DNA of 64,000 bases from a virus, in IMG/VR virus record IMGVR_UViG_3300023179_000016, positions 1-64,000 of that record. One strand, given 5' to 3'. Position numbers and translations under genes: made by a program. Positions 3,638-64,000 of the stretch are shown here, piece by piece. Each line of letters begins with the position of its first letter. Within the stretch, counting starts at the first letter, position 1. The notes under the pieces are model-generated. The model did no database searches. It was given only the letters and a program-made list of their open reading frames with translations, and was not told the DNA's origin.

Positions 3638-6600
3638 ATGTCAGATATTAGAATTAAGAAAAAATTTATAGGTTCAGGAACAGTAGGAACAGAAAAGATA
3701 CTATTAGAAAACGATAGTGCTGTTCGCGCGCGAAATGCCGCAAATGGCGCAGATGTTGATCTATTTAAATTAAACGGTAGTGATAGATTAGAGTTTTTAA
3801 CCATACCTCAAGTACCAGCAGATCCGCAAGATGCAGATGATCTTGCTCGTAAGCAATATGTAGATTCGCTTGTAAGTGGAATAGAATCTATGCGCAGTGA
3901 GGTCATAACCTTATCTGAACAGCAAATAAACAATCAATATATTGATTTAGAATTTAAAATAAATACTGATGGTTTATTTGTTGCCACTGATTCACGAATT
4001 CTATTGTTTAAGAACGTGGACTATTCATTAAGTGAAGTCATGAATTCGAGCGGCGAAACCATAAGTCGTTTAAGTTTTATGGGACCTTCAGCTATTAATG
4101 GAGATACAGAATTAAAAGAAAACGATGTTCTCTACATAAATTATTTTCCAGTAAGCGGAATATCTATTAGTAGTGGGGGCGGAGGCGGAAGCGGTCAAGA
4201 TGGTCGTTCTGTATTGTCTGGTTCTTCAAATCCATCGTCTGGTGCAGGTAATTTAGGTGATTTTTATATTAATACTACTAGTTGGAATATATTTGGGCCT
4301 AAAACACTTTCTGGATGGGGATCTGGCACATCGCTAGTAGGTGCTACTGGCCAACAAGGTCTTATCGGTCCGCAGGGTCCTATCGGTCCACAAGGTCCTG
4401 CTGGCGCAGATGGCGCAGATGGATCTATAGGTCCACAAGGTTTACAGGGTCTTACCGGCCCACAAGGTGCTACTGGTGCTACTGGTGCAACTGGCCCACA
4501 AGGTCCTGCTGGTGCAACTGGTGCAACTGGTGCTACTGGCCCGCAAGGCCCTGCTGGTGCAACTATTATTGAGGGATTTCAATATTATCAAGACGATTTA
4601 CGCTATCCAATGGTTCTTGATGCGGCTAATAAAGTAAGAGTAAATTTAGCACAGGATTATCAATTAAATGATCTTAGGGTAGGAGATAAAATAGTTAGTG
4701 GAAATTGGTGGAGCAATGGTCCAAGCGGTCCTCATATAGCTTCTATAGTTAGAACTGCAAATTATTTAGATATAACTTTTACAGCAGATCTCAAAGACGT
4801 TTTAATTAATAGCGGTTGGGCTATTCAAAGCCTAGTTGTTCTTATGAAAAATTTTGACAACGTATCGCCTCCAGTTGAATACACTGGATCAAACGGCGAT
4901 TACTATTTAGCTAAAATTAGCCCTACAGACGTTCGTTTATATGGCCCTAAAACAGATGGATCTTGGAGTTCTTCTTATGTCCAATTGATTGGTCCTGCTG
5001 GCCCTGCTGGCGCCGATGGTGCTGCTGGTGCTGCTGGTGCTAACGGTGTTGATGGCGCAACGATCATCGCAGGCCTCTACGAATATGATGAGGTGAACGA
5101 CAGAAATATCGTCCCACCTAATCTTGGCAAAGTCGGCGACTATTTTATAGAAAAGACTATTTATCACATCCATGGACCCAAAACTGCGTCAGGCTGGCCT
5201 ATATCCGGTCTCAATATGCAAGGACCTCGAGGTCCAGAAGGTCCTCGTGGTCTTACTGGCTCGCGTGGCGCAACTGGTGCAACTGGCGCAACTGGTGCAA
5301 CTGGTGCAACTGGTGCAACTGGTGCAACTGGTGCTACTGGTCCACAAGGCCCGCAAGGTCCTGCTGGTCAAGCTTTTTCTATAGCTAAAGTGTACGTTTC
5401 ATTGTCTGAATTGTTAGCGGATACTAGTCCATCGGGAATTGTTTCGGGTCAATTTGCTATAATTGACACTGGAAATGCAGAAGACGCAGATAACGCAAAA
5501 CTTTATCTTTGGGATGGATCTTCATATGGTTATATAACAGATTTGAGTGGCGCACAAGGTATGACTGGTCCACAAGGTCCACAAGGTATACAAGGTCCAC
5601 AAGGCGATACCGGTCCACAAGGTCCACAAGGCGATACCGGTCCACAAGGTCCTACTGGCGCAACTGGAGCAACTGGCGCAACTGGAGCAACTGGTCCACA
5701 AGGCCCGCAAGGTCCTCAAGGCTTGAAGGGCGATACTGGCGATCAAGGCCCGCAAGGTCCTCAAGGCTTGAAGGGCGATACTGGCGCGCAAGGCGTGGCT
5801 GGAAATAATGGAGCTGCTGCTAGTATCTCAGTTGGAACCGTCACTACTGGCGCGGCAGGATCATCCGCGACTGTGACCAATGCCGGAACTTCAAGCGCCG
5901 CCGTATTCAATTTCGTAATACCTAAAGGTGATAATGCTGTCATCACTGGCGCTGCCAGCACTATCACAAGCTCTGATCTGACCGTTAATCGCGCGGTGAT
6001 ATCGAACGCTTCAGGAAAAATTGCTGTCTCGGCTGCGACTGATACCGAATTGGGCTATCTTTCGGGAGTTACTAGCTCAATTCAAAATCAATTCACAACA
6101 AAAGCAAATCTTGCTGGCGGGAACAATTTTGCCGGAAAACAAATAACTACGGCTAACGCATCTGAAGCAGGATTGATGATTGGTTCAACCGCGAGCGATC
6201 CTAGCTTACTGGCTAATGGGGATATTTGGTACAACTCGGCAACTAACGAGTTAAAGCATCGGCAAAATGGCGTTTCAATTCCAAATCGTAATCTGCTCGG
6301 AGTTAGAGTCTTATCTACGGTCGGAGTCGGGACCTATACGCCTACCCCCGGAACGAAATATGCAGATATCACCTTGATTGGGGGCGGTGGAGGCGGCGGT
6401 GGAGTTACCGGCGCAACATCGAGCGTGGGTGTCGGAGGCGGCGGTATGTCGGGAAATATCATACGACTTTATTTGACCGTTACTTTGGCAAGTTATTCAA
6501 TCAGCATCGGAGCTGGAGGAGCGGGCGGAATAGGAGGGAATTCGGGTGACACAGGCGGCACAACTTGGATTAACACTGGCAGCGCAATTAACTGCTTTGG

Positions 6601-6934
6601 CGGGATTGGCGGACTTGTCGGCGCTGCTGGAACTACAGTCGCTTTTGTGGCCGGTGGAAGCACTGCCACCGCGCCGCCTACGGCGGGATTTATCAACGTA
6701 AGAGGTACTCCCGGAAGTGTAGGCATACGCCTCAGCGGGACAGTGGGACGACCGGGTGCAGGCGCAAGTTCTCCATTTGGCGCGGGAGGTGCCTCAGTCG
6801 GAGTGAACGGTTCCGGCGAGAACGGTACGGGCTACGGCGCTGGAGGGAGCGGCGCATTGAGCACTCAGGCGACCGGCACCTTTAACGGCGGCAGCGGTAG
6901 CCAAGGCGCGATCATCATTTTCGAGTACGCATAG
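3638..6934 (+). CDS. Collagen-like (GXY) tail fibre with C-terminal glycine-rich domain
   Basis: Long GPQ/GAT triplet runs, repeated GxxGDFY...GPKT..GW modules, Gly-rich C-terminus ending [12 protein letters not shown]. Confidence 0.85.
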
Positions 6935-6965
6935 TTTTATTGAGTTTTCTTCAATATATCCGTAA

Positions 6966-7064
6966 GATAGGATACGCGACGGGGGCAGTCTCGCCTCAGC
7001 GCTTGACTACAGCGCGATCAGCGACAACGTGGACAACCTTGAGTTCGTTCAGGTGTACTCGTAA
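6966..7064 (+). pseudogene. Orphan GC3-rich 3' gene fragment (DRIRDGGSLASALDYSAISDNVDNLEFVQVYS*)
   Basis: Startless frame with GC-ending codons between the tail fibre stop and the terminator. Confidence 0.3.
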
Positions 7065-26243: not shown

Positions 26244-26498
26244 CTATTTGTTTTGCCCCAATGCAATACGAGCTATTTCTTGATATGCTTCATCTAAGTA
26301 TCCGCCTATAGATGATGGGGCAATATCTCCATCTGCAATCTGTTTTAATGCTTGCTTCAAGCGGATATTTTCTCGTTTTAGTTTTACAAAAAGTTTATTA
26401 TTGCAATCGCAGAGTTTTTCCGGATAACACGATGTGTCTGTGACGTACTTGTTTTTATGTCCCCTTAGAGATTTAATTTTTTCACGTCGTTTTTTCAT
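26244..26498 (-). CDS. Small protein related to the ENARLREAL/ARAALEGK array family
   Basis: ENIRLKQALKQIA...EIARIALG. Confidence 0.55.
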   Translation of the reverse strand: MKKRREKIKSLRGHKNKYVTDTSCYPEKLCDCNNKLFVKLKRENIRLKQALKQIADGDIAPSSIGGYLDEAYQEIARIALGQNK

Positions 26499-27018
26499 AT
26501 TTTGCTTTTAACTCCGCTGGCAGTTGTTCCCAGTCGTCATCGCTGACACTGCTACGTTGCGGCTCTGACTTTTCTAGACATCTGTATTTTTTCTCTTCTG
26601 GCTTGCGGGCCTCGATGACCGGTACACTGGAAATGCCCAAGCCGGTCTCCGCAAGCATGGCATCCATCTTGGCGCCGTTGATATACAGATAATCATTGGC
26701 TATGCATGCAACAGACATTGTCAACTGTATCTCTGAGCTATATGAATAATGCTTACTGCTGAAATATGTAGACCATACATCAAATTTGACACAAAGATCG
26801 GTATTCTTATATAGGATCTTTACCGTTCTATTGCATCTCATGGGAATCTTTCTCTTACCTATGACATCGTTGAATAGCGATATACCCATGTTATAGAAAT
26901 AAGTCACGATGTCATTTTCTGAGTCACCAGATATTGCTTTGATCGCATACATGAGACTGTTGCTGATCTGCAGCGATTTAAAGATGACCGGTCTATTGTT
27001 TACCTTAGCTACTTCCAT
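26482..27018 (-). CDS. Hypothetical protein with C-terminal DWEQLPAELKAKY tag
   Basis: SD AGGAG before ATG 27018. Confidence 0.6.
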   Translation of the reverse strand: MEVAKVNNRPVIFKSLQISNSLMYAIKAISGDSENDIVTYFYNMGISLFNDVIGKRKIPMRCNRTVKILYKNTDLCVKFDVWSTYFSSKHYSYSSEIQLTMSVACIANDYLYINGAKMDAMLAETGLGISSVPVIEARKPEEKKYRCLEKSEPQRSSVSDDDWEQLPAELKAKYEKTT

Positions 27019-27019
27019 A

Positions 27020-28402
27020 TTATCTCCTTGAGCTAGAGTCTGGAACTTTAACAGTCTCACCGATTCTCTTCAGCGGATGATCCTCGGTGCCGTTCTTACT
27101 GATGATCCATAGAACTTGCGGAAATTGTTCTCCGGGTTTGAGCCATGACTCATATTCTACGTCGCCGTAGCAACCGTCTGTAATGATGATGCTGAGATCG
27201 CCTCTGCGCTTCATTACGTCTTGTAGCGTCTCCGTTAGATCTGTTCCGCCGCTCTCGATCTGCGATCTATCGATCTTGGTACCCATCTTATACGATTGAC
27301 GACCGTACGCAGCCGTGTGGAAGAAGGACATATTGCACTTGCGAGCGCCCACCTTCAAGAATTGATCTACAATCTCTAGGAATTCGTTTAATTCTTCGAT
27401 TGAGACCGAACCAGACGTATCGAGGTGTAGCTCGAGTTTGGGTAGTTCGCCGACCTTAGTACCTGGAGCCTTGAAACCAAATCGCTTAGATTTTCTAGTC
27501 CACGTAGATTTGCGATCGTGCCCTGCAGCATGCTTCTTCATCGCAGACATGATGAGGGCACGATAGTTGAGTTCTGCCCTGCGCGTCTTGATGTCGTCGA
27601 GCAATTCCTTTACATGGCCAGGCATGTCATCGTACGATAGGCGAGCCTTCACCATGGCGCGCTTGACTAGCTCCTCTGTGGCGTCAAGCATATCTTTTTC
27701 TTCTGCTGCGCCATCCCACATGTGCTCGTCCAGAGTCTGAGGAATATCACTTGATTCTGTTCCGCCGCCAGAGTTACCTTGTCCATCGCCCGACTCTTCA
27801 TCTGGATCGTCGAATCTCTTGATCAGGCGCTCGTAGTATGTCTCCATGGTCTGGTTTGCAGGCCACGGAATCTTAGCATTAGTTTTCTCGTCGAGGTCGA
27901 AGAAGTCTGCAACATCGATGCATCGACCCGGGCACATCTCGTTTGGACATTGCTCCATCTTTTCTGGAGGAGGGCAGGCAGCGCACCCTTTGGGAATGTC
28001 CTTGATGAACTGATTGATTGCCATATCGGCCGCGACATTCATGAGCATCCGCTTTCGGGCAGAGATCTTCATGAACGGTACGCGAAGTGGATGCTTATGC
28101 GTGATATGAGAGAGTTCATGTATTAGGACAGCCTTGCGCTGTGGACCTGTCAACTTCCTGCAAAAGAAAAATGGATTGATGAGCATGTCCCAACGTTTAG
28201 CATCTGTATTAAACAAGATGCCTGCAGTCGGCAGAGTGTGCGAATAAGAGATAGTTAGACATTGCAGAACAGACCCGAGGAATGGGTGTGTCTTTGATGT
28301 CTCGTAGATCGCGGTGGCCAGACATTGAGTCTTCTCCTCCACGGTGACAAACTCTTTGTCCATTATATCTTTGGTTATGTTAGGCCTAATTCTAGACGAC
28401 AT
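27020..28402 (-). CDS. VWA domain / putative metallopeptidase (DUF2201-like)
   Basis: HELSH, AADMAIN, DTSGS MIDAS, GGTD, ITDG; SD AAGGAG before ATG 28402. Confidence 0.85.
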   Translation of the reverse strand: MSSRIRPNITKDIMDKEFVTVEEKTQCLATAIYETSKTHPFLGSVLQCLTISYSHTLPTAGILFNTDAKRWDMLINPFFFCRKLTGPQRKAVLIHELSHITHKHPLRVPFMKISARKRMLMNVAADMAINQFIKDIPKGCAACPPPEKMEQCPNEMCPGRCIDVADFFDLDEKTNAKIPWPANQTMETYYERLIKRFDDPDEESGDGQGNSGGGTESSDIPQTLDEHMWDGAAEEKDMLDATEELVKRAMVKARLSYDDMPGHVKELLDDIKTRRAELNYRALIMSAMKKHAAGHDRKSTWTRKSKRFGFKAPGTKVGELPKLELHLDTSGSVSIEELNEFLEIVDQFLKVGARKCNMSFFHTAAYGRQSYKMGTKIDRSQIESGGTDLTETLQDVMKRRGDLSIIITDGCYGDVEYESWLKPGEQFPQVLWIISKNGTEDHPLKRIGETVKVPDSSSRR

Positions 28403-28440
28403 ATGGCTCCTTTTATAGATTATAATAAAATCGGATAAAG

Positions 28441-28481
28441 CAACATGCCCGGAACTGGGAGGAGTAGTTCCGGGCATGTTG
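28441..28481. promoter_or_regulatory. 16-bp perfect intergenic hairpin with an anti-SD-like loop
   Basis: CAACATGCCCGGAACT-GGGAGGAGT-AGTTCCGGGCATGTTG. Confidence 0.6.
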
Positions 28482-28510
28482 GCCGATGCGCATTTGGTGC
28501 AGCACCGATT

Positions 28511-29656
28511 TTATTTCTTGGGTTTATCGACACCAGTCGCGCGCGAGATCTTGATGTTATCTTTCAAGATCTTGACAAGTTCTGGATGACGAACGCTGAA
28601 TTGCTTGAAGAATTCAGTGATCTGGCCCTTAGATTGTTTGTACCCGCACGCCTTGATGAGGTTGACAGCATGATCTGCAGGGATGATCTTCGCTACTTCT
28701 GCCATGGTGTCCTCGTCGATCTGGTCCTGCTTGCAATCTTTCTTGAGGCCACCGTAGTGCTTCTCGATCGATTCGACCGTGGCCGCGATCATGTCGCCCT
28801 GATAGGTCTGAGGATCGGACTGCGAGCGCAACCTGGTGAATGCCGCAGAAGAATCCTTGATGATGTCTTGCGCGGTCACTGGAGCCTGCTCGAACCTGAA
28901 CTTGTGGTATTCATTGCCGATATCTTTACCCAAGATAGAGGCAGCGACGATTCGGTGGAGCTGCCTGTTCTTGTCGATACCGGCCATCTCGGCAGCATTT
29001 ACCTTAGACCAGGTGCGTGGCGAGATGTATTGCCCGTCTTTACCAAGTTCCTTGGTGGTTTTATATGTCCAGATGCCGCTGCCGACGAACATCTGCACGC
29101 CTTCGTGCCAGGAACTATTCTCCATGAAGTCGATGAACGATATGTGGTCGAATTCAACCTCAAACGACTCGAATCGATCGCGGAGAGCGGCGTCCATCGT
29201 GTTGACGTCGTATTCCGAAGAATCCGGATTGACGCAACCTGCGATGATCCAACCCTTAGGAAGTTCATAGTTATGAACCTTGCGGTCGGTGAGAAGCTGC
29301 ATGAGACAGTTCATGACGCCGGTCGTACCGCGATTCGGCTCCTCGAGAAGAATAAGGCCTTCGCTCTTCTTGTCATTTGGCCAGAATTCCGGCAGGCGAT
29401 GCTTGGTCCTGACCGTGCCATCGGTATCTCTCTCGGTCTCGGGAAACCCGATGAGATCGGGAGCTTCCATGTAGGCGATTCGCAGATCGAGAAATCCGAA
29501 GTTGGGATTCCGTTCGCGCTGCTTTTTGACCCATTGCTGCACGATCTGCGATTTACCGAGACCGGCTTCGCCGGTAAAAAGAGGGTTGAACACTTGACCG
29601 AGCTTGCGTGCCTCGGCCGCCACATCCATAATGCTGAAAATATTGTTTGGTTTCAT
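28511..29656 (-). CDS. MoxR-like AAA+ ATPase
   Basis: GEAGLGKS, LLEEPNR, DAALRDRF, SPRTW; adjacent to the VWA gene. Confidence 0.85.
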   Translation of the reverse strand: MKPNNIFSIMDVAAEARKLGQVFNPLFTGEAGLGKSQIVQQWVKKQRERNPNFGFLDLRIAYMEAPDLIGFPETERDTDGTVRTKHRLPEFWPNDKKSEGLILLEEPNRGTTGVMNCLMQLLTDRKVHNYELPKGWIIAGCVNPDSSEYDVNTMDAALRDRFESFEVEFDHISFIDFMENSSWHEGVQMFVGSGIWTYKTTKELGKDGQYISPRTWSKVNAAEMAGIDKNRQLHRIVAASILGKDIGNEYHKFRFEQAPVTAQDIIKDSSAAFTRLRSQSDPQTYQGDMIAATVESIEKHYGGLKKDCKQDQIDEDTMAEVAKIIPADHAVNLIKACGYKQSKGQITEFFKQFSVRHPELVKILKDNIKISRATGVDKPKK

Positions 29657-29713
29657 TCTTCGTTCCTCCGCTTGTGATATATATATGATCAGAATTTAGT
29701 CGTAGTCCGGCAG

Positions 29714-30022
29714 TCAATGATATTCTCTAGAGTCGGGTTCACCTATGGTCATAGATGCCACTAGCCTAGAAACATACAGATTTGAAAGTTTCTGTCTAGC
29801 TGCAAATACATCGAAAGAGGACTTGTCGTCTTCTTGAGCTGCTCTAATGGCTAGAGTCTCAAACGTCTTGGCGCTTATAGTCATCAAGTTTATCAGCGTA
29901 TTTAACTCCTCTTTTGACATGGTCAAATTTATAGTGCCTACTTGCACAGTAGGTGCAGACTTCAGTACCTCTTCAACCGGCTTACTCTTTTTCTTCGTCT
30001 TCGTCTTCATCTGTCTCACCAT
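29714..30022 (-). CDS. Hypothetical protein
   Basis: Operon ORF. Confidence 0.55.
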   Translation of the reverse strand: MVRQMKTKTKKKSKPVEEVLKSAPTVQVGTINLTMSKEELNTLINLMTISAKTFETLAIRAAQEDDKSSFDVFAARQKLSNLYVSRLVASMTIGEPDSREYH

Positions 30023-48940: not shown

Positions 48941-49432
48941 TTAGCTAGCGATGAATTTAGCAGCGAGTTCTGGCGGGAGAACAGAGTAATCGATTGTAGT
49001 GTTCATCTTATTTGTCTGAGAAATCTCAGCAGTCCTGTTGTCGATGTGGCCCTGAACCTCAGCGATCTCGCTGGGATCGGTGAGAGTGGAAAGAAGGGCA
49101 CGAAGCGCTTTTAGCTGAGGGTCAGAAGAACCCTTACGAGAACCAGGATTCTTTGCTGCATAAGATACGCCGCCGTTCAAGCGAGTATCTTTGCGGAGCC
49201 AATTTGACTGAAGACCGGAGACATACGCCCGCAGCTCAGAAGCGTTAAAACTCTTATCAAGAGCGATGTTTCCAGCAGAAAAACCTTCTACCAGAATTTG
49301 GTTAACCTGCAACCGCAGTTCACGAGTCATCATCGAGCTGATATTGTCGCCCTCAGATACCGTGATATTGTTCTCAGCCAGAACGTTCATAACTGCTGAA
49401 TAGACTGCTTCTTTTTGAGTTTGCTTAGACAT
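48941..49432 (-). CDS. QKEAV/NWLRKDxRLNGG paralogue family protein
   Basis: QKEAVY...YVSGLQSNWLRKDTRLNGG...DPQLKALRALL...IDYSVLPPELAAKF; SD AGGAG. Confidence 0.85.
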   Translation of the reverse strand: MSKQTQKEAVYSAVMNVLAENNITVSEGDNISSMMTRELRLQVNQILVEGFSAGNIALDKSFNASELRAYVSGLQSNWLRKDTRLNGGVSYAAKNPGSRKGSSDPQLKALRALLSTLTDPSEIAEVQGHIDNRTAEISQTNKMNTTIDYSVLPPELAAKFIAS

Positions 49433-54815: not shown

Positions 54816-55058
54816 ATGCACTCTGAATGGTGTGGCGGGTTAAAGTCTCCGCAAGACAGAGCAAAGGATCTTCAAGATAGACTTAATTCTATACAAGGGA
54901 TGAAGGGCGTGAGGCCTCACGATGTCGATAAAAAGGATTACGAGAAATGGGCGGAGACGGGAGACGACGGCGCTATTCATCATTACATGGGCAAAGACAT
55001 GAGAGAGATCTCTAGAGATGGTATGTGCACAAAATGCAAGGCCAAAAATGAGAGCTAG
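54816..55058 (+). CDS. Hypothetical protein
   Basis: H..WC and CTKC motifs. Confidence 0.45.
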   Translation: MHSEWCGGLKSPQDRAKDLQDRLNSIQGMKGVRPHDVDKKDYEKWAETGDDGAIHHYMGKDMREISRDGMCTKCKAKNES

Positions 55059-55075
55059 CCGCTGCATTTGGCGGC

Positions 55076-55103
55076 GTAGCGGTGTCAGCCGCGCGGCTGA
55101 CAC
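55076..55103 (-). terminator. Example of hairpin + GACACYGCYAC element at the 3' end of a minus-strand unit
   Basis: GTAGCG GTGTCAGCCGCGCGGCTGACAC between convergent genes; nine same-orientation copies in the window. Confidence 0.5.
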
Positions 55104-55114
55104 ACTCGAGCAAG

Positions 55115-55333
55115 TTATTCCTCTTCAGTGTACGGGTTGGAGAAGTCCAGCGCGCCAATAAATCTGGTGGCTAGTACAACTTTAGGTCTTGGAATAACCT
55201 CAACCTCTTTCACGTTCACCCTAATTTTCTTGTGATTATACAGCTGCACCAGCAGATTTTCATCTCCAATAGAGTTTAGAACTTTTGCTTCGGACCCTGA
55301 CCAAATGCCGGACTTAATCTTGATCTTCACCAT
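55115..55333 (-). CDS. Small KOW/SH3-like hypothetical protein
   Basis: IKIKSGIWSGSEAKV pattern. Confidence 0.5.
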   Translation of the reverse strand: MVKIKIKSGIWSGSEAKVLNSIGDENLLVQLYNHKKIRVNVKEVEVIPRPKVVLATRFIGALDFSNPYTEEE

Positions 55334-55343
55334 TCGCTGACCC

Positions 55344-55592
55344 TCACTCGGTTGCTTCGCTGTTGTAATTGCGCTGCTGCAGCTCTTCCATGAATCTAGT
55401 ATATGACTTTACGTGTCTCTTGAAGAGAGGGATCGCTTCGTCCCACTTCTCGTCTCCGAGAGCGCACTCGGTCTCTATTACATCTGTCACGAAAGAGATT
55501 GCTTCCGCGTCTGACCCAACCTTCCAAGAAGAAGAAATACCCTTGTTGCTGAGAATGTCATTAACCTGTTCTGCTTTGTTGCTGTTGCTCAT
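55344..55592 (-). CDS. Hypothetical protein
   Basis: Promoter motif at 55614-55626; SD GGAGG. Confidence 0.6.
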   Translation of the reverse strand: MSNSNKAEQVNDILSNKGISSSWKVGSDAEAISFVTDVIETECALGDEKWDEAIPLFKRHVKSYTRFMEELQQRNYNSEATE

Positions 55593-55755
55593 TAGAGCCT
55601 CCCGTTACTTGGAATAATAGATTCGGTTTTTAGAACTATTTATCTTCGTCGTTGTCGTCTGGGATGTTGGGCGCTAGACAGATAGTGATGATCAGCATGA
55701 TAGCCATCAAGATTAGTGGCGCTGCCTCTGATGCCTTGTCTTCCATGTTGATCCT

Positions 55756-56106
55756 TTAGGGAAGATAAGAGAAATGTATCTGCTCTTCTCTCACTTCGCG
55801 GCTGCACTCGCCGCATTTAGTTTCTCTGAGCAATACGGGATCTCGCTTGATTCCGGTGCCGCCGCAACTCTTGCAGACATTAGATTTTAAGCTGCTGATC
55901 TCCGCTCTCAGCGCTTCATTCTCGAGCTCCAATAGTCTCACATGCCACTCGCGGCACGCACATGCGTTGTGGTGGGAAGTGCACTTCGGAATTTGTCTCA
56001 GTTCTTGCGGTAGAGAATTGAGATCGCACTCGCAATCCAGCACTAGATTGCAACCTGGACACGCCTCATTATACATATAATCACTGTTGGACTTGTATGA
56101 CATCAT
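55756..56106 (-). CDS. Cys-rich hypothetical protein
   Basis: Several CxxC motifs and LENEALRAE; SD AGGAG. Confidence 0.6.
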   Translation of the reverse strand: MMSYKSNSDYMYNEACPGCNLVLDCECDLNSLPQELRQIPKCTSHHNACACREWHVRLLELENEALRAEISSLKSNVCKSCGGTGIKRDPVLLRETKCGECSREVREEQIHFSYLP

Positions 56107-56136
56107 TTTCTCCTGTTTGGTTGTTATATTCAGTTT

Positions 56137-56391
56137 TTAATCGGCGAGCTCGAACTTCATCGAGTTGATCCTCTTCACTGGAACCATATACCAGCTGGCG
56201 GACAAACCGGACAGGAAGAATGTTTTGCTGACAATACTCCAGTAGATGTAGGATTTAAAGTTCGGATTATCGTTAAACATGCCCATAAGATCATCACCGG
56301 ACTTCTCTTCGAGACCGATCATGCGAGCTGCTTCTCTGGGATCGACGGTGGTACCATCTTTGAAGATAACTTTCGTGAGTCTTGACTTCAT
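56137..56391 (-). CDS. Hypothetical protein
   Basis: SD GAGGAG. Confidence 0.6.
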   Translation of the reverse strand: MKSRLTKVIFKDGTTVDPREAARMIGLEEKSGDDLMGMFNDNPNFKSYIYWSIVSKTFFLSGLSASWYMVPVKRINSMKFELAD

Positions 56392-56636
56392 TTTTCTCCT
56401 CGACTTAAGAGGTTCTCAATCACTATATTAACTCAAAATACACTACTATCCCACGTGTTTTTATCGTGTCGGTATAAATTACCCATGGAATGGTTGAAAT
56501 GGTTCTTAGTGATACTGGCAGCAGATGTGTGCGCGAGCCTCTTAAAGGAAAGCAATTGGAAGAGATTATTCAAGAAGAAGCGCAAGCGCAGCAGGTCTCG
56601 CAAGGTCGCTCAGATTATACCCCTCAAAAAGGTGGA

Positions 56637-56849
56637 TTAGATCTTCCTGTCCGCGCACTCGTCGCAGCCTTGAATCTCATTGGAGAACGAGTTGCACTCC
56701 TTGCACGACTCAGCCCAGTATAGGTCCACGATGTTCCCCAAGTCCTCGACCTGCACAGAGCACGCCACCGTCGCATTATTCATCTCGTTGTACGGGACGG
56801 CCTCATTCGACTCAAACTCCACGATGATTCTATACTTGGGCATGATCAC
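56637..56849 (-). CDS. Hypothetical protein
   Basis: MPKY start shared with 56846-57037; C-terminal CxxC pair. Confidence 0.55.
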   Translation of the reverse strand: MIMPKYRIIVEFESNEAVPYNEMNNATVACSVQVEDLGNIVDLYWAESCKECNSFSNEIQGCDECADRKI

Positions 56850-57037
56850 TTCACCTTCTTGATGTTGAGAACTTCCTCGTTGAACTCAATATTTTTGTAG
56901 TCGTACTCCACTTCAGACATGGACTTGCGCTTTGAGACCCCGCCGTAGATCTCTGCCGCTCCCCTCTTGGATTTGGCCTTTATGTACCTCACGGAATAGA
57001 TGGTCTGCTTCACTCGGACAGCATACTTCGGCATCAC
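56846..57037 (-). CDS. Hypothetical protein
   Basis: GC3-rich coupled ORF. Confidence 0.55.
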   Translation of the reverse strand: MMPKYAVRVKQTIYSVRYIKAKSKRGAAEIYGGVSKRKSMSEVEYDYKNIEFNEEVLNIKKVK

Positions 57038-57245
57038 TCGACTCTCGCCCCTTTATGAGTTGGTCTCTGCGCATGCCGCGATGTGCTGCGCTACGTCCTC
57101 ATCTACGCCCCTCTCTCGCTTCTCGGCCAAGGAGTCTGCGTCGCACCTGCCGCAGGTCTTGACATCGTAACCCTTGAGCCTCAGAAAGAGAGCTTCGCAC
57201 CTCTCGCACGTATGCTTCACGAACGTCATACCCAAGTACTCCATA

Positions 57246-57392
57246 TCACTCCTCCTCGCAAGAGAGCTCAAACGTCTTCTTGTGCTTGACCCGGTCCTTC
57301 TTCAGGGGGTGGACCTTGCTGGGCAATGGTTCCACCCTGGGTCTAATCCTTGGGCGCTTAATCTTCAGGGTGATCTTCTTCATAGAAGACAT
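57246..57392 (-). CDS. 48-aa basic protein, not in the ORF track
   Basis: MSSMKKITLKIKRPRIRPRVEPLPSKVHPLKKDRVKHKKTFELSCEEE*; SD GAGG. Confidence 0.5.
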   Translation of the reverse strand: MSSMKKITLKIKRPRIRPRVEPLPSKVHPLKKDRVKHKKTFELSCEEE

Positions 57393-57420
57393 AGTGCCAC
57401 CTCATCCTTTCGTTATAGGT

Positions 57421-57711
57421 TTACAGCTCGAACTCCCCAACCTTGGGATTCGAACTCGAATTATAGCGGATCCAGGAGCTGCAGGAGTTGCACCTGACAG
57501 TGACGGGGTCGTAGCGATGGACGTACACGTCGGGGGACCCGCAAGCGTAGCAGCTCCTAGAGCAGTAGATGATGTCGATCAGAGCCTCCATAGTGGTCTT
57601 CTCCTCGCTGTGCTTGCCGCAGGAGGTGCAGGTGAAGATGTACGGGTCGCCCACCGTGTACTCGTCGTCCATACCAATATAGACATTGCAGTGGCGGCAG
57701 TAGATCTTCAT
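57421..57711 (-). CDS. Double zinc-ribbon protein
   Basis: CRHC, CTSC, CYAC, CNSC; SD GAGGAGG; promoter motif at 57740-57752. Confidence 0.65.
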   Translation of the reverse strand: MKIYCRHCNVYIGMDDEYTVGDPYIFTCTSCGKHSEEKTTMEALIDIIYCSRSCYACGSPDVYVHRYDPVTVRCNSCSSWIRYNSSSNPKVGEFEL

Positions 57712-57850
57712 AGGTCTAAATCCTCCTCGATTCCAGCGGATATAATCTCGGGGAAAAGTCGACCGCGCAGAAAAGAGAAGTCCACGCACGTCCCTCATAG
57801 ACACACGTGGACCTCTCTATATCAGCCGGGCTCGCGACCCAACAACCAAC

Positions 57851-58333
57851 TCACTCGCCAGACGTTGCCGTCGGAGCAAACTTGGCAGCGAGCTCCGGGG
57901 GCAGAGCACTGAGGTCGATCGTCGGCTGCTTGGACCGAGCGATCTCGGCGACCCGGGCATCGATGTGGGCCTGGACCTCAGCCCGGTCAGTGACGTCGGT
58001 GAGCGTTCCGAGCAGGGCTCGAAGAGCCTTGAGCTGCGGATCACCAGAACCAGAGCGAGAGCCAGGGTTCTTAGCCACATATGCGACCCCACCGTTCAGC
58101 CGCTTGTCCTTTCGGAGCCAGTTGCTCTGCAGGCCAGAGACATAGGCCTTCAGCTGCTGGTCGGTGAACTCCGTATCGAGCTCGATAGCTCCACCGCGGA
58201 ACCCCTCGAACAGGATCTGGTTCACCATGGCCCGCTCCTCACGGGACATCTCGACTGCACTCGAGAACTCGGTAGTTCCCTTGACGTTGACGACTGCACC
58301 ATAGACTGCTTCTTTCTGACTCATCTTGCTCAT
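57851..58333 (-). CDS. QKEAV/NWLRKDxRLNGG paralogue family protein
   Basis: QKEAVY...NWLRKDKRLNGG...IDLSALPPELAAKF. Confidence 0.85.
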   Translation of the reverse strand: MSKMSQKEAVYGAVVNVKGTTEFSSAVEMSREERAMVNQILFEGFRGGAIELDTEFTDQQLKAYVSGLQSNWLRKDKRLNGGVAYVAKNPGSRSGSGDPQLKALRALLGTLTDVTDRAEVQAHIDARVAEIARSKQPTIDLSALPPELAAKFAPTATSGE

Positions 58334-59322
58334 AACTAACGTTCCTCCGTTGTTGTTCTATAAGATCGGGATATCGGTCACCACGACCGGTATCTTCACC
58401 TATGGGGTGTTCGGTACTCACTCAAAACTGGCTACTTCCGCGTCTGCTGTGGCTACCTACTGCTTGCCGCCTGCCTCCACTGGGGAGAGCTCCACTCGCG
58501 CTACTCCCTGCTCTCTACATCATTACCACCTAGATATATGTTCGGGATAATGGGATGTCGTGTAAGTCGCTGATACTATTGGTGGGGAAGGTTGGTGTGG
58601 AAGGGGTGTAACGGTGCCCACCTGAGTCACACTGAGTCTGACCCGACCTGCACGTCGCACTCACCGAGACTCCCCGATACCCGTCCAGACAGCCGATCGG
58701 GCTCGTGAGGTCATAGGCTCGGCTGCACCCGACAGCCGGCGTAGCAGTGTCGGCGCGCGCTGAAAAGCAGTGGGTAGGGCAAGCAGCCGCTATTATATAG
58801 CCCGGCCAGGGCCATGTGCTGCCAGATCCCTACCCACGGACGCTTGTTGATCCCTTACTGCCTGAGTCTAGCCGTCGTCAGACAGGTCACCAACCTGTTA
58901 CGACCTCTAGATCGTTTCGGCCTTGGAAAGACTCACGTATCCGGGTACGGTTTTGAGAGCCACCCATCATACATATTCAGCAGGAGACAGAACCGTACAA
59001 GATTCTCCTACCGGTTAGACAATACATCCCGGTACTTCCGTCTAACAAGAGTACCGGATTTACCCCTCACTTTACCCGGACTAGGGACCGGTCACCGATA
59101 AGTGTCCTGGCTAGGACCACCGGTGAGTGGAAAACTGACTTACTTTCTGAGGCAGATGATCGGGAGCAGCGCGCGTGTTTCTGCGCCGAGAAGAAAAGCT
59201 ACGAGCGCATGACAGAAAAGCGTCTAATCCTACCAAGGCGGGCGCCGGGAATTGACCCGCCCACCCAGCGACCGCCCGATAAACCGCTGTTTTTTGAGCC
59301 TAGCTAACCTCCGGGGCGTGGC

Positions 59323-59592
59323 TCATTTCCCCTCCAGCGCGGCGCGGGCAATACTTGGCAATGCACAATCACAGGACTTCCCAAATTGAATGTCGCACCG
59401 TTCATGGTGAATGGTCAGATATTGCTTCAGCGCCTCCCGAAGCCTGGCGTTTTCAGCGCTGACTTCCTCGATTGCGACACGATACCCAGCCAAAAACACT
59501 TCTATGTCAATGTGCATTACAGATGCGTCTTTCTGATAGGCTGGGAATCGCTGCTTTAGATATTCTTCTGCCAGTTTTTCGGCTCTAGTCAT
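59323..59592 (-). CDS. Array unit 5 (ENARLREAL...ARAALEGK)
   Basis: Start codon supplied by the preceding repeat (GGAGGGGAAATGA). Confidence 0.7.
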   Translation of the reverse strand: MTRAEKLAEEYLKQRFPAYQKDASVMHIDIEVFLAGYRVAIEEVSAENARLREALKQYLTIHHERCDIQFGKSCDCALPSIARAALEGK

Positions 59593-59792
59593 TTCCCCTC
59601 CAGCGCGGCGCGGGCGATCGATGCGCCACAAAGACAACCAGCGGTATAGTCACAACCTTCATCATGGGCGGCAAATCTTTCCAGCGCCTCCCGAAGCCGG
59701 GCGTTCTCGGCTTCCATTTCGGCTCGTCCGGATTCGTAACCCTGTTGCCATCCTGAGCACGTTCCCTTGCATGGGTGATTCAGCTTGTTCAT
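59589..59792 (-). CDS. Array unit 4
   Basis: ENARLREAL...ARAALEGK. Confidence 0.7.
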   Translation of the reverse strand: MNKLNHPCKGTCSGWQQGYESGRAEMEAENARLREALERFAAHDEGCDYTAGCLCGASIARAALEGK

Positions 59793-60019
59793 TACTTCCC
59801 CTCCAGCGCGGCGCGGGCTTCAATTACTTCCTGTCTAAGTTCATCCCAAGCCTGACCTAGCTCTTCGTCCAGCAGAAGAGCCTCATCCACTTTATTGGTG
59901 ATCTTGCGAAGCGCCTCCCGAAGCCGGGTGTTTTCGGCTAAGAATCGATTCCTGGCCTCTTCAAATCCCCGCAACCACACCAATTCATCCGGACTTCCCG
60001 CCTCAGGTCTTGTGCTCAT
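59792..60019 (-). CDS. Array unit 3
   Basis: ENTRLREAL...ARAALEGK. Confidence 0.7.
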   Translation of the reverse strand: MSTRPEAGSPDELVWLRGFEEARNRFLAENTRLREALRKITNKVDEALLLDEELGQAWDELRQEVIEARAALEGK

Positions 60020-60233
60020 TTAGTTTCTCCATAACATTGGCAGGGAGCATCTTTTCGTCTTCTAAAAAGACGTAATCGTACCCATCCGCGTGTTTCATCA
60101 GGTCTTCTTTTAACGAGCGAATGTCGGAGCTTATCCACTGTCCTAGAACCTGACCGTCTTCAGTGACACACACACCAACCACGTCCCAACCCGGGCTGGA
60201 CCCAAAGATCGGAAATCCATAAGCCTTCTTCAT
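60003..60233 (-). CDS. Non-repeat gene embedded in the array
   Basis: MKKAYGFP start supplied by repeat A; lacks both motifs. Confidence 0.6.
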   Translation of the reverse strand: MKKAYGFPIFGSSPGWDVVGVCVTEDGQVLGQWISSDIRSLKEDLMKHADGYDYVFLEDEKMLPANVMEKLNEHKT

Positions 60234-60565
60234 GCTTCCCTCCCCTCCAGCGCGGCACGGGCTGCACACTGCAGGCACCCCTGGTCGGAATAGCTGCACC
60301 GCTCATCGTGCCCACGGACCATTTCTTTCAGCGCCTCTCGCAGTCGTGCATTCTCAGACCGAAGCATAATTACCTCGTTAAGCCACTGCGGTGGCTCAAT
60401 AATGAGGTAAGACATACCCGCCCTTGTCCCCGGTGGATCGGACAAATGAATTTGTAAAGGCTCTGATGAGGCCAGTACGCAAGCATGGTCCTGAAGCGTG
60501 TTCAGTGAAACTTCTGCACCGCAGCGGGAGCATTTCCCAATTTTGTCGTTTGTAAAAAGGCTCAT
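60230..60565 (-). CDS. Array unit 2
   Basis: MSLFTN...ENARLREAL...ARAALEGREA. Confidence 0.7.
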   Translation of the reverse strand: MSLFTNDKIGKCSRCGAEVSLNTLQDHACVLASSEPLQIHLSDPPGTRAGMSYLIIEPPQWLNEVIMLRSENARLREALKEMVRGHDERCSYSDQGCLQCAARAALEGREA

Positions 60566-60804
60566 TTCCCCTCCAGCGCGGCGCGGGCGATATTTCCGAG
60601 CGTGCAATCGCAGAATCGAGCAGCGTCCAGCGGTGGGTTATCCCGCGAGGCGCAATCGTGGAAATGCGTGTAAGCGTACTCCTCCAGCGCCTCCCGAAGC
60701 CGGGCATTTTCAGCTTCAAGCTCTTTCATTTTTGTAGTGACTTCTTGGTTATACCGATCGGCAGAATCCAGCATGTCCTTTGTGAGATCCAATTCATCCT
60801 TCAC
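60562..60804 (-). CDS. Array unit 1
   Basis: SD AAGGAG then GTG; ENARLREAL...ARAALEGK. Confidence 0.7.
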   Translation of the reverse strand: MKDELDLTKDMLDSADRYNQEVTTKMKELEAENARLREALEEYAYTHFHDCASRDNPPLDAARFCDCTLGNIARAALEGK

Positions 60805-60993
60805 ACAAACGCTCCTTTCCGAAACTGGGGACTGGCCGCCTTATCCTTTTCCGGAGAGAGTTATGTGTGACACTACTACTCTTCGATGAAGTTTCACGAT
60901 CTTACGCGGCACCGCAGGCACTTCAAGCCTTCTGGGCCATTATATCACACTGTGCGAGATCTGTGGAGCTCTACGTAGGTGAGACTCATGGTA

Positions 60994-61206
60994 TCAACCC
61001 TTGTCTTTGCCGAGGCTGATGGGCAGCAGAGCCATCATCTCGGCGATGACCTGCTCGTCGGTCATCGGAGTGAGCTCGGGATTGGGCGTGAGCTCGGCTG
61101 GCACGTTCGGCCAGGGATACGAGGTCATCTTGAAGGGCTTGCCGGCCGCGACGCCGTACACGGTCTGTGTCTCTGTCTCAGAGTTGTAGCACGAGAGGTA
61201 TCTCAT
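60994..61206 (-). CDS. Hypothetical early-region protein
   Basis: SD AGGAG; GC3-rich codons. Confidence 0.6.
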   Translation of the reverse strand: MRYLSCYNSETETQTVYGVAAGKPFKMTSYPWPNVPAELTPNPELTPMTDEQVIAEMMALLPISLGKDKG

Positions 61207-61242
61207 ATCTTTCTCCTGTTGAGATTTAGGATCGGGATGGGT

Positions 61243-61404
61243 TCAGAGGTCCTCGACCAGATACTCGCCCTCGATCTCCAGCTCGACTGCGTAGCCCTGC
61301 TCGAGGTACTTATCTCCCACCTCGAGTGCCTGGTCGTAGGAGTCAAACCTGATGCTGGCGAACCTGGAGCACTGACCGATCTCGCGGACGTGGATGGTGT
61401 ACAT
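61243..61404 (-). CDS. 53-aa protein, not in the ORF track
   Basis: MYTIHVREIGQCSRFASIRFDSYDQALEVGDKYLEQGYAVELEIEGEYLVEDL*; SD GGAGG; promoter motif at 61425-61438. Confidence 0.65.
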   Translation of the reverse strand: MYTIHVREIGQCSRFASIRFDSYDQALEVGDKYLEQGYAVELEIEGEYLVEDL

Positions 61405-61528
61405 TCATATCCTCCATACATGGAATTATATGATCGGGATCGGGTGGGATTCGGTTATATAGTCGGCGTGGCGGTGTCGGTCGGCGAGCAGCCGGGCGGA
61501 GCTTCCTTGCTCCGCCTGCTCACTCAGG

Positions 61529-61879
61529 TTACTTGGAGTAGGCGACCACACCGTACAGTAGTCCGTTACCGGAACCATCGACTGGTTCGTCGACCATCTT
61601 GTATCCGAAAAGCTCCATGTTGTAGTTGAGTGCGTCGAGCATGTGGTCGATCCACTCGTTGAGTTCATGAGCATCGTCGGGTTTCAAGCCGTCGTCTGCG
61701 TAGTCATAGTGGACGACTATATCGCCCAACTTTATTGAAGGAAGAACTCCGTAGTTAGAGATGTTGGTCGGATCGATCGCTTCGACATACATGCTGCCAG
61801 GCATGTCACACTTGGCCTGGTGCGGAGCAGTTGACTCGAGATTGCTCACCAGTTTCACTACGGTGTTCATGTTAGCCAT
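61529..61879 (-). CDS. Acidic hypothetical cassette gene
   Basis: Leader duplicated with that of 62668-62925. Confidence 0.7.
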   Translation of the reverse strand: MANMNTVVKLVSNLESTAPHQAKCDMPGSMYVEAIDPTNISNYGVLPSIKLGDIVVHYDYADDGLKPDDAHELNEWIDHMLDALNYNMELFGYKMVDEPVDGSGNGLLYGVVAYSK

Positions 61880-61945
61880 CAGGCAGACCTCTGGGTTATG
61901 AGTTAATTATTTAACCCATCGACAATTATATATAATGTCGGTAAT
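61876..61945 (-). promoter_or_regulatory. Promoter + hairpin leader + SD, duplicated at 62922-62995
   Basis: ATTACCGACATTATATATAA...GATG(A/G)GTTAAATAATTAACTCATAACC..GAGGTCTGCCTGATG in both copies. Confidence 0.8.
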
Positions 61946-62020
61946 GAGTTTACGGGTGGCGTAGCAGTGTCAGCGAGCAGCTGGGCGGAGCTTCCTTGCT
62001 CCGCCCAACCGCAGGTCAGC

Positions 62021-62488
62021 TCAGGCCTTGAACTTCGCGGCCAGCTCTGCAGGCAGCTGGCTGAAGTCGATGGCGGGCTTCGCGGGCTTGGCGATCTCGG
62101 CACTCCTGAGGTCGATGAAGTGCTGGATCTCAGCCCTGTCGGCCGGGTCAGTCACCGTGCTGAGCAGGGCCTTGAGAGCCTTGATCTGCGGGTCGCCAGA
62201 GCCAGAGCGAGCACCAGGGTTCTTGGTGACCCAGGTAGTCCCGCCGTTGAGTCGCTGGTCCTTGCGGAGCCAGTTGTTCACGAGGCCGACCACGTACTTC
62301 TTGAGCTCCGGCTCAGAGAAGTTGGCCTTGAGGGTGATCTTACCCTCCTTGAACATGGTGACCAGCTCCGAGTGGATCTGGGCCAGCTCAGACTTGCTGG
62401 GCGTGTGAGCTCCGTTAGGAGCGAACTGAGTGCAGAAGCAGCTGACGACATTGAAGACCGCTTCCTTCTGGTTCATTGCTGCGATCAT
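62021..62488 (-). CDS. QKEAV/NWLRKDxRLNGG paralogue family protein
   Basis: SD GGAGG before ATG 62488; NWLRKDQRLNGG...IDFSQLPAELAAKF. Confidence 0.85.
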   Translation of the reverse strand: MIAAMNQKEAVFNVVSCFCTQFAPNGAHTPSKSELAQIHSELVTMFKEGKITLKANFSEPELKKYVVGLVNNWLRKDQRLNGGTTWVTKNPGARSGSGDPQIKALKALLSTVTDPADRAEIQHFIDLRSAEIAKPAKPAIDFSQLPAELAAKFKA

Positions 62489-62667
62489 GCGGGTTTCCTC
62501 CGTTGGTTGGTTGTAGGTTCGGGCGCGAGCTGTAAACTCGAGCATCATGCGCTCGACATTTACAATTAGATATAAGATCGGGGGAAGTCGGTATGCGGCC
62601 GGCGTAGCAGTGTCACGGCGCGCGGACCAAAGGGTGGGGTCGTCCATGACCCCACCGTATCAGCGAC

Positions 62668-62925
62668 TCAACCGGTCAGCAGGTCGTTCCAGTCGACTGG
62701 TACGTAGCACTCGCCGGTCTCGCGGGCGAACTCGGATGGAGTGGGTTCGCGGCCGACTCGCACGTGCTGGTCGAGCTCCTCGATGTAGACGACCGACGGT
62801 TCGGAGTCAGTGACCTCATAGAAGTACTGATCAGCGTCCGCATCCAGCATCTCCCGCTGGATTCCCTCGTGGGTGACGAGGACGGTATAGTCGGTGCACG
62901 GCACAATAGAGATGAGTTTCACCAT
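62668..62925 (-). CDS. Acidic hypothetical cassette gene
   Basis: SD GGAGG; shared leader. Confidence 0.7.
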   Translation of the reverse strand: MVKLISIVPCTDYTVLVTHEGIQREMLDADADQYFYEVTDSEPSVVYIEELDQHVRVGREPTPSEFARETGECYVPVDWNDLLTG

Positions 62926-63084
62926 CAGGCAGACCTCCAGGTTATGAGTTAATTATTTAACTCATCATTCACTTTTATATATAATGTCGGTAATAGGACA
63001 CCAGGCGTAGCAGTGTCGGTGGCTCGAGCTACCGAGCCCGCTGCGGGGCGGAGCTTCCGTGCTCCGCCCCGACCCGCTCTTCGC

Positions 63085-63522
63085 TCAGCGCTTGCCGAAC
63101 TTGGCTGCGATCTCTGCAGGCAGCTTGCTGAAGTCGACCTTGGGTCGGTTCAGCTCGGCGATCCGAGAGTCGATGTGTCGCTGGATCTCAGCTCGATCCG
63201 TCGGGTCGGTGATGGTGCTGAGCAGAGCCCTGAGCGCAGTCAGCTGGGGATCATCGACTCGGGAGGACTTGGGTTGGTGATCGACCCCACCGTTCAGCCG
63301 CTTGTCCTTTCGGAGCCAGTTGTTGAGCAACCCTGAGACATAGTTGCTCAGCTCCTTGTCGGTGTACTCCTTCCTGAGCTCGATGCTCCCGTTCCTGAAC
63401 CCCTCGAACAAGACCTGACGGATGGTTCGGGTCTGCTCAGAAGTCGGCTCGCAGACGCCGACTCCATCGAACCCGGTGATCGCGACCACTGCCTGGTAGA
63501 CTGCTTCCTTCTGGTTCATCAT
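63085..63522 (-). CDS. QKEAV/NWLRKDxRLNGG paralogue family protein
   Basis: SD GAGGAG before ATG 63522; NWLRKDKRLNGG...VDFSKLPAEIAAKF. Confidence 0.85.
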   Translation of the reverse strand: MMNQKEAVYQAVVAITGFDGVGVCEPTSEQTRTIRQVLFEGFRNGSIELRKEYTDKELSNYVSGLLNNWLRKDKRLNGGVDHQPKSSRVDDPQLTALRALLSTITDPTDRAEIQRHIDSRIAELNRPKVDFSKLPAEIAAKFGKR

Positions 63523-64000
63523 GCGATGCTCCTCATGATCCATTGTAGGATCAGTTGACACATCCATGCGTCGGGTTGATTGATATGTAATGTCAGTACA
63601 ACATCACACATCAACATGTAAGATCAGTATTTAATTAAATACCAATCATTTACATATAGATATAAGATCGGAAATCGTCGGGAAGAGATCATCCGAAAAT
63701 AGGGCCCGCCGACCTCGACTTACAAGGGATCCCTAGAGTCGGGACCGGTACACGCTGCGCGAACGCTCTCTACATGCAACTTTTTATAAAATAGGGCCCG
63801 CCACCCTTGCTCCCTAATAGGTACAATTTAACCGGTACCTCTTTTGCCTATTATATAAAAATAAACTCATGAAGACCTATCATTTTAAGAAAGACAACGA
63901 GATACACTCTAGCATACCGAGAATAAAATTAACCGCTCTGCTTCTTCTCCTGAAGATAACGACGATCAAGGACCTAAACCTAGAACACATATGACACGCG

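Follow-up and report, generated by a model that had tools for sequence, protein, structure and literature searches.

We analyzed a stretch of 64,000 nucleotides (hereafter the window) that comprises positions 1-64,000 of the 153,399-bp IMG/VR virus record IMGVR_UViG_3300023179_000016 (rated 91% complete). The record represents an uncultured, freshwater-type and virulent-type phage of 153 kb. The element under study is an array of small genes on the minus strand, at 59323-60804, in which five paralogous genes (U1, U2, U4, U5 and U6) are accompanied by one unrelated gene (ORF3) (Table 1). The five U proteins share a common plan: a variable N-terminal module (N-module) is followed by the block ENxRLREAL (block 1, a possible leucine zipper), a variable middle and an ARAALEG(K) tail (block 2, or tail block). 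A preliminary description of this DNA, made from the letters and their open reading frames (ORFs), had recognized this plan in all five genes. It held on closer analysis, with ENTRLREAL as the form of block 1 in U4 and ARAALEGREA as the end of U2. The same description had reported an H-x3-C...C-x(1,2)-C pattern in four of the five middles, and this pattern was found in U1, U2, U5 and U6 and was absent in U4. The diverged solo relative that it had placed at 26244 proved to be a true family member (E 1e-15 to 1e-20). Scanning all ORFs of the 153-kb genome with a hidden Markov model identified exactly these six family members.

Table 1. Genes, repeat blocks and promoter-like site of the array, and the solo family member (coordinates of the window).
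Feature	Position	Strand	Length	Description
U1	60562-60804	-	80 aa	GTG start, AAGGAG 7 nt upstream; helical N-module, ENARLREAL, H-x-H-x-C...C-x-C middle, ARAALEGK tail
U2	60230-60565	-	111 aa	N-module with CxxC...HxC, block 1, H-x3-C...C-x2-C middle, variant tail ARAALEGREA
ORF3	60003-60233	-	76 aa	Outside the family; conserved; homologues at 66-74% aa identity
U4	59792-60019	-	75 aa	MSTRPE-type N-module, ENTRLREAL, Cys-free helical middle, ARAALEGK tail
U5	59589-59792	-	67 aa	Short Cys/His N-module, block 1, H-x3-C...C-x-C middle, tail
U6	59323-59592	-	89 aa	N-module, block 1, H-x3-C...C-x-C middle, tail; middle 52% identical to that of P0010
Solo family member	26244-26498	-	84 aa	In low-GC backbone; Cys-free middle, IADGD...SSI.GY.DEAYQ subtype
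Block 1 (ENxRLREAL), five copies	59420-59457, 59674-59711, 59901-59938, 60321-60358, 60677-60714	-	38 nt	68-87% identity
Block 2 (ARAALEG, Shine-Dalgarno, stop/start), five copies	59323-59353, 59589-59619, 59792-59822, 60236-60266, 60562-60592	-	31 nt	81-87% identity
Promoter-like site	60967-60939	-		Sigma-70-like, TCCACA-17-TATAAT with upstream TG (extended -10), ~135 nt upstream of U1

The stop codon of each gene lies at the start codon of the next, in the form ATGA at U1/U2, U2/ORF3 and U5/U6 and TAATG at U4/U5, and ORF3 and U4 overlap by 17 nt. Every start that comes after a tail block is preceded, at a distance of 3-9 nt, by GGAGGGG. After U6 the tail-block junction opens an orphan frame of 8 codons (59300-59326). 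The six genes thus arranged form one translationally coupled operon, probably expressed early, that is part of an accessory island of high GC content.

A repeat search of the window yielded two five-copy direct-repeat families corresponding to the two blocks (Table 1), in agreement with the earlier claim that both are conserved at the DNA level. Block 2 ends in GGAGGGGAAATGA, which comprises a Shine-Dalgarno (SD) sequence, a stop codon and the next start codon. This dual coding of the tail, likewise noted in the preliminary description, recurs in eight other arrays. Because the tail block carries a ribosome-binding site and an overlapping stop/start, any cassette located behind it is expressed in frame and coupled.

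Amino-acid constraint, named at the outset as the other possible source of the DNA identity, was tested by drawing codons from the island's own usage in 20,000 simulations and comparing the outcome with the array. In block 2, 66 of 70 pairwise codon comparisons were identical versus 23 expected, and the simulation maximum was 43. For block 1 the corresponding values were 54 of 92 versus 37 (P=0.003). Thus, the codon identity of the blocks exceeds what amino-acid constraint explains, and in the tail block it does so by far. Across the 8 genomes with at least two family members, the last 12 residues and 13 codons of members of one array resembled each other more closely than those of different arrays did (P < 0.0003). 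The tail has a 'dialect' specific to each array, and all tails examined (23 of 23, from 8 genomes) were purine-rich with an SD and overlapping stop/start. In AT-rich phages the GC content at third codon positions was 0.47 for block codons and 0.35 for the rest of the same genes (P=0.001), which is moderate evidence for conservation of the block DNA, or for its exchange, across lineages.

The block DNA might be conserved purely for a signal in RNA or in translation, such as the SD, the stop/start coupling or small hairpins, in which case its coincidence with homology breakpoints (described below) would be secondary. Indeed, GGAGGGG followed by ATGA is a textbook coupling junction, the 23 tails are uniform in this respect, and CCCGGCTTCGGG, present in four block 1 copies, can form a 4-bp hairpin. 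However, such a signal leaves the identical GCC CGC GCC GCG codons upstream of the SD unexplained. Block 1 is not accounted for either, the hairpin-forming bases not being kept in other phages, nor is the fact that homology to other phages stops at the blocks. We consider this explanation very unlikely.

The word GCTGGAGG is present in 6 copies in the array, in one orientation only, and in 11 copies in the genome. It matches a Haemophilus-type Chi variant, but a Chi-like role was considered and dropped, as the Ala-Leu-Glu-Gly codons already dictate this word.

To determine the extent of the family, a profile built from the six window cores was scored against 1.84 billion protein representatives from a library clustered at 50% identity. 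It matched 695 cluster representatives at E <= 1e-3 and 11 at E <= 1e-10, with all six window proteins recovered at E 4e-11 to 1e-28. Most matches were proteins of 57-150 aa carrying the whole profile at the C-terminus. In alignments of 79-81 sequences, the near-invariant columns were E, N, R, L, R, A and L in block 1 and A, R, A and L in block 2, and the regions before block 1 and between the blocks were hypervariable. Middles span 16-35 residues, some being of His/Cys3 type and some plain helix; among 78 compact members, 34 had no cysteine in the middle and 26 had two or more. The middle of the solo member is 70-75% identical to the middles of P0007, P0012, P0024 and P0031. Arrays of 2-4 members were found on contigs L013, L017, L019, L031, L034, L039 and L043.

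The preliminary description had referred to the middles of the array as Zn-knuckle-like. Of 124 representatives, 11 had the pattern H-x3-C-x(4-16)-C-x(1,2)-C, namely U1, U2, U5 and U6 of the window and seven others. Thus, it holds for four units of the array but is one of many middle types and not a trait of the family. Note that the retroviral zinc knuckle has the spacing C-x2-C-x4-H-x4-C, from which the spacing in the array differs.

The family was invisible to most other searches. Pfam, PHROG and NCBIfam contained no family model for the window proteins and 40 relatives, producing only sub-threshold coiled-coil noise. Searches of 50,697 deposited phage genomes with blastn and tblastn gave no match, and 185,579 species' genomes gave a single match that was weak and confined to the zipper. 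A word-indexed protein search with U6 and the solo member as queries returned self matches only, the family surfacing only in the profile search, and a literature search on the motif found no paper. One family record carries the habitat label 'freshwater metagenome'. In conclusion, the family is real, large, mostly metagenome-only and previously undescribed.

In some family proteins (P0067 and P0039), a single reading frame spans two complete units. Met or Val comes directly after the internal tail, as if coupled genes had been fused by loss of a stop codon. In three other phages, a PD-(D/E)XK nuclease gene (PF12705) lies next to or near a family array (L052 678-1730, L054 1293-2384 and L033 4232-5350), and ribonucleotide reductase (RNR) genes are often located nearby. 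PF12705 had no match in the genome of the window.

We next compared the array with those of other phages. The ORF at 60003-60233, described earlier as an unrelated frame captured between repeats, is a genuine gene, conserved in other phages, and moves together with the U4 N-module as one cassette. The contigs encoding its homologues (L049, L050, L052 and L054; 35-39% GC) bear arrays of the same family, and the segment from 60233 to ~59910, consisting of ORF3 and the U4 N-module, has 73-75% DNA identity to each of them. The homology ends on the left at 60233-60262, within the U2 tail block, and on the right at 59910-59931, within U4 block 1 (59909-59935). Past block 1, each of the five lineages continues with a middle unrelated to those of the others (Cys-free helical, CCEC-type, acidic, QCEDIRFG-type and another), so that the N-module type of U4 is joined to four other middles in the four contigs. 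Upstream of the tail block, four different units are found (U2, MSLSDRL-type, MYENLY-type and MTEEEL-type).

The other contigs also differ among themselves at the blocks. In L052, the MSTRPE N-module bears a middle that is found with the MSHVEHC N-module in L049 and L050. When L049 is compared with L050, one segment of homology stops where a block 1 starts and a second segment begins at a block 2, and the order of units differs. One N-module exists as a free-standing gene of 52-60 aa in L049 and L050, and L052 and L054 have it as a fusion with the zipper framework. Since the phage backbones are only distantly related (26% aa identity of RNR), the cassette has moved horizontally between phages.

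Among 95 representatives there were 44 pairs with similar N-modules and 19 with similar middles, and none similar in both, a count that is biased towards zero by the clustering of the library at 50% identity. Judged from these sequences, N-modules and middles assort independently. The codon identity, the breakpoints inside the blocks, the differing unit order and the independent assortment of modules support the repeat-mediated shuffling put forward in the preliminary description. They show that the conserved blocks are framework residues and also sites of cassette exchange.

A simpler origin of the array would be ordinary tandem paralogy, in which local duplication produced young blocks held by strong purifying selection and fast-diverging variable parts, with no role for recombination. 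The very strong family-wide amino-acid conservation of both blocks and the invariance of the array in all available contigs are consistent with this, and a longer stretch of 55 nt shared by U1 and U6 (82% identity) fits duplication. However, neither the middles nor the N-modules of the five units are mutually alignable, and closer relatives exist in other phages (U1-P0009, U4-P0017 and U6-P0010). In addition, the cassette of ORF3 and the U4 N-module is common to distant phages and breaks at the blocks, and in the tail block synonymous codons agree far more often than expected, while adjacent codons are unrelated. Tandem paralogy without exchange thus appears quite unlikely.

Besides the clustering bias, several observations weigh against our reading of the array and its proteins. 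Contigs L049, L050, L052 and L054 are partly interrelated, and their eight breakpoints do not represent eight independent events. Selection on the SD and on coupling could by itself account for the 3' half of the tail block. Searches of PDB by sequence, and of PDB and BFVD with Foldseek, returned generic helical or coiled-coil matches only. Furthermore, the variants in unit number and order envisaged in the preliminary description were not seen in the phage's own population, where eight contigs from other samples that bear the array were 100% identical; it is in distant relatives that the array varies. On balance, we regard it as probable that the array belongs to an undescribed family in which the blocks act as in-frame exchange joints.

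Two types of cassette are exchanged. The first extends from a tail block to the next block 1, comprising the SD, the stop/start, the next N-module and sometimes a whole extra gene such as ORF3. The second extends from block 1 to the tail block and contains the middle. Searches with positive controls detected no integrase, resolvase, tyrosine recombinase, serine recombinase or reverse transcriptase in the 153-kb genome. Because a reverse transcriptase or recombinase is absent, exchange would presumably rely on general homologous recombination, with 25-35 nt of identity as its substrate.

The alternation of constant and variable segments bears a superficial resemblance to dedicated diversification machines acting on repeats, such as diversity-generating retroelements or shufflon/invertase systems. 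Such a machine is extremely improbable here: the 153 kb searched encode neither a reverse transcriptase nor tyrosine or serine recombinases, and the repeats are direct, not inverted, without a template repeat. Moreover, the variable segments are unequal in length and are not point variants of each other.

We then considered what the conserved framework may look like. In sequence, block 1 can be read in heptads as L-x2-E(g)-N(a)-A-R-L(d)-R(e)-E-A-L(a)-E-x-I(d), and may represent a three-heptad leucine zipper with Leu/Ile at d, Leu and a buried Asn at a and a possible g-e' Glu/Arg pair. On this reading, the Leu heptads and the buried polar Asn at a would resemble those of the GCN4/bZIP leucine zippers. 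In contrast to these, the family proteins are without a basic DNA-binding region. Matches to the Pfam models bZIP_1 and bZIP_2 were weak (E 0.03) and below the cut-offs (14.8 bits versus 22.3 for bZIP_2). The AlphaFold2 model of U1, computed with the family alignment, has a helix at residues 2-52, a loop with the Cys pair and a second helix at residues 68-77 (predicted local distance difference test score, pLDDT, 87.6). U4 was modelled as a single continuous helix (residues 10-72; pLDDT 91). The ARAALEG tail is predicted to form a short amphipathic C-terminal helix.

The proteins may pair as zipper dimers, possibly mixed between members of the array, and the middles of His/Cys3 type could staple the C-terminal helix to the zipper via zinc. 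The variable modules would bind host or defence proteins, making the array a swappable repertoire of early binders. This functional part, the prediction of dimeric host-directed binders with variable binding modules, is tentative, and we hold it to be possible rather than likely. A fully combinatorial binder system is unlikely; here the zipper would be universal and all members would pair, five genes would give rise to 15 homo- and heterodimers, and two specificity slots would be reassorted between phages. If true, lytic phages would be able to re-arm rapidly, with a new repertoire directed at targets of host defence or takeover.

Among known systems, the mosaic early proteins of the Ea22/Ead type (PF13935; lambda Ea22; PMC10834534, PMC7093339) are the closest analogues. 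They are likewise small early proteins with a short N-domain, a coiled coil and a variable C-terminal part. They are also oligomeric, highly mosaic between phages and of poorly known function, the oligomeric state of the family described here being a prediction. In contrast, the family proteins are half the size and have two in-frame junctions rather than one. Furthermore, the Ea22-like proteins are encoded in the exo-xis early region of temperate lambdoid phages, whereas the present family occurs in phages of non-temperate type (no integrase) and is essentially absent from bacterial genomes. Homology between the two was not detectable: PF13935 had no match at E <= 1 among the window proteins and none at E <= 0.01 among 40 relatives, hhalign of the family profile against lambda Ea22 gave a probability of ~1%, and a protein atlas listed PF13935 only at 0.84.

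The PeSL cassettes of the hyperplastic regions of T4-type phages are another system in which short repeats flank small non-essential early genes and shuffle by homologous recombination (Arbiol 2010, PMC2839356; Comeau 2014, PMC4122927). A similar grammar, made up of a hairpin, a GACACYGCYACGCC box and a TATA box, is present between genes of the island in which the array lies. However, PeSL are intergenic promoter-terminator modules that move whole genes, whereas the repeats of the array are in frame and swap protein parts. Both repeat families lie inside reading frames, and the only promoter-like site is the one ahead of U1. The T4 capsid protein Gp23 (PF07068) was searched for and gave no match in the phage, and none in the control genomes either. 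In the gp38 adhesins of T2/T6-type phages, conserved glycine-rich motifs delimit hypervariable, interchangeable specificity segments (Trojet 2011, PMC3157838). These adhesins are unrelated in sequence and fold and are single-copy virion proteins of known role, in contrast to the multi-copy, non-structural array analyzed here.

The family comprises at least 695 clusters at 50% identity for which Pfam, PHROG and NCBIfam have no model, and with its profile hundreds of freshwater virome genes listed as 'hypothetical' can be annotated. It is a clear example of modules exchanged in frame: two blocks of 25-35 nt serve both as protein framework and as recombination joint, with the tail in addition acting as ribosome-binding site and stop/start. 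Such an arrangement helps to explain how phages assemble new small proteins from parts and yet keep them expressed. The natural chimeras offer a tractable system for asking if such arrays are anti-defence or host-takeover repertoires.

The preliminary description had also assigned a promoter to the array. A site of the extended -10 type is present upstream of U1 (Table 1), but sites of this type numbered two in 4.5 kb versus 2.3 expected by chance. Since their number is not above chance, it is the position of the site that speaks for it, and its role as array promoter is putative.

The phage backbone has a GC content of ~38% and encodes four tRNAs, RNR, a DNA ligase and a tail fibre gene. The array is located in an island of ~9.5 kb with 52-58% GC, at roughly 55.5-65 kb. 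Two assemblies from other samples, 100% or 99.99% identical, run across the island edge near 55.5 kb, and an assembly chimera as origin of the island was therefore ruled out. The solo copy in the backbone has AT-rich codons, the array is GC-rich in its codons, and the homologous cassettes of other phages have 35-39% GC. A phage lineage of higher GC content is therefore the probable source from which the island was acquired.

The island (55500-64000 in the window, to ~65000 in the genome) is rich in ORFans. Four ORFan paralogs of 160-208 aa on the minus strand (57851-58333, 62021-62647, 63085-63567 and 48941-49432) share 70-73% DNA identity and have no Pfam match. Three are in the island and one is in the backbone, so that they are distributed as the array family is, over island plus backbone. 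The 14-nt box GACACYGCYACGCC occurs six times on the minus strand (55073, 58738, 61465, 61958, 62601 and 63004; 0.03 expected). In the spaces between island genes, these boxes are accompanied by TATA boxes and by GC hairpins whose loop is AAGGAA, in the manner of a PeSL-like intergenic grammar.

Directly downstream of the array, ~1 kb (58334-59322) is free of ORFs. Its folding stability was not above that of shuffled sequences (z -0.6), and it had no Rfam match; Rfam scans of the window and of 58200-61100 returned only tRNAs and two sub-threshold matches. Contigs from three other samples all stop at 59078-59103, a hint that a repeat or a breakpoint in the population may be located there. On contig L003 (6642-7280), a 320-bp segment corresponding to 55007-55326 of the window is present twice in tandem, either as a real duplication or as an assembly artefact.

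Further GC-rich patches are located at 5000-7000 and 27000-30000. The former is the distal part of the tail fibre gene. The latter contains an HNH endonuclease gene (27020-28477) and two long ORFs on opposite strands that overlap fully (28445-29677 on the plus strand and 28511-29656 on the minus strand).

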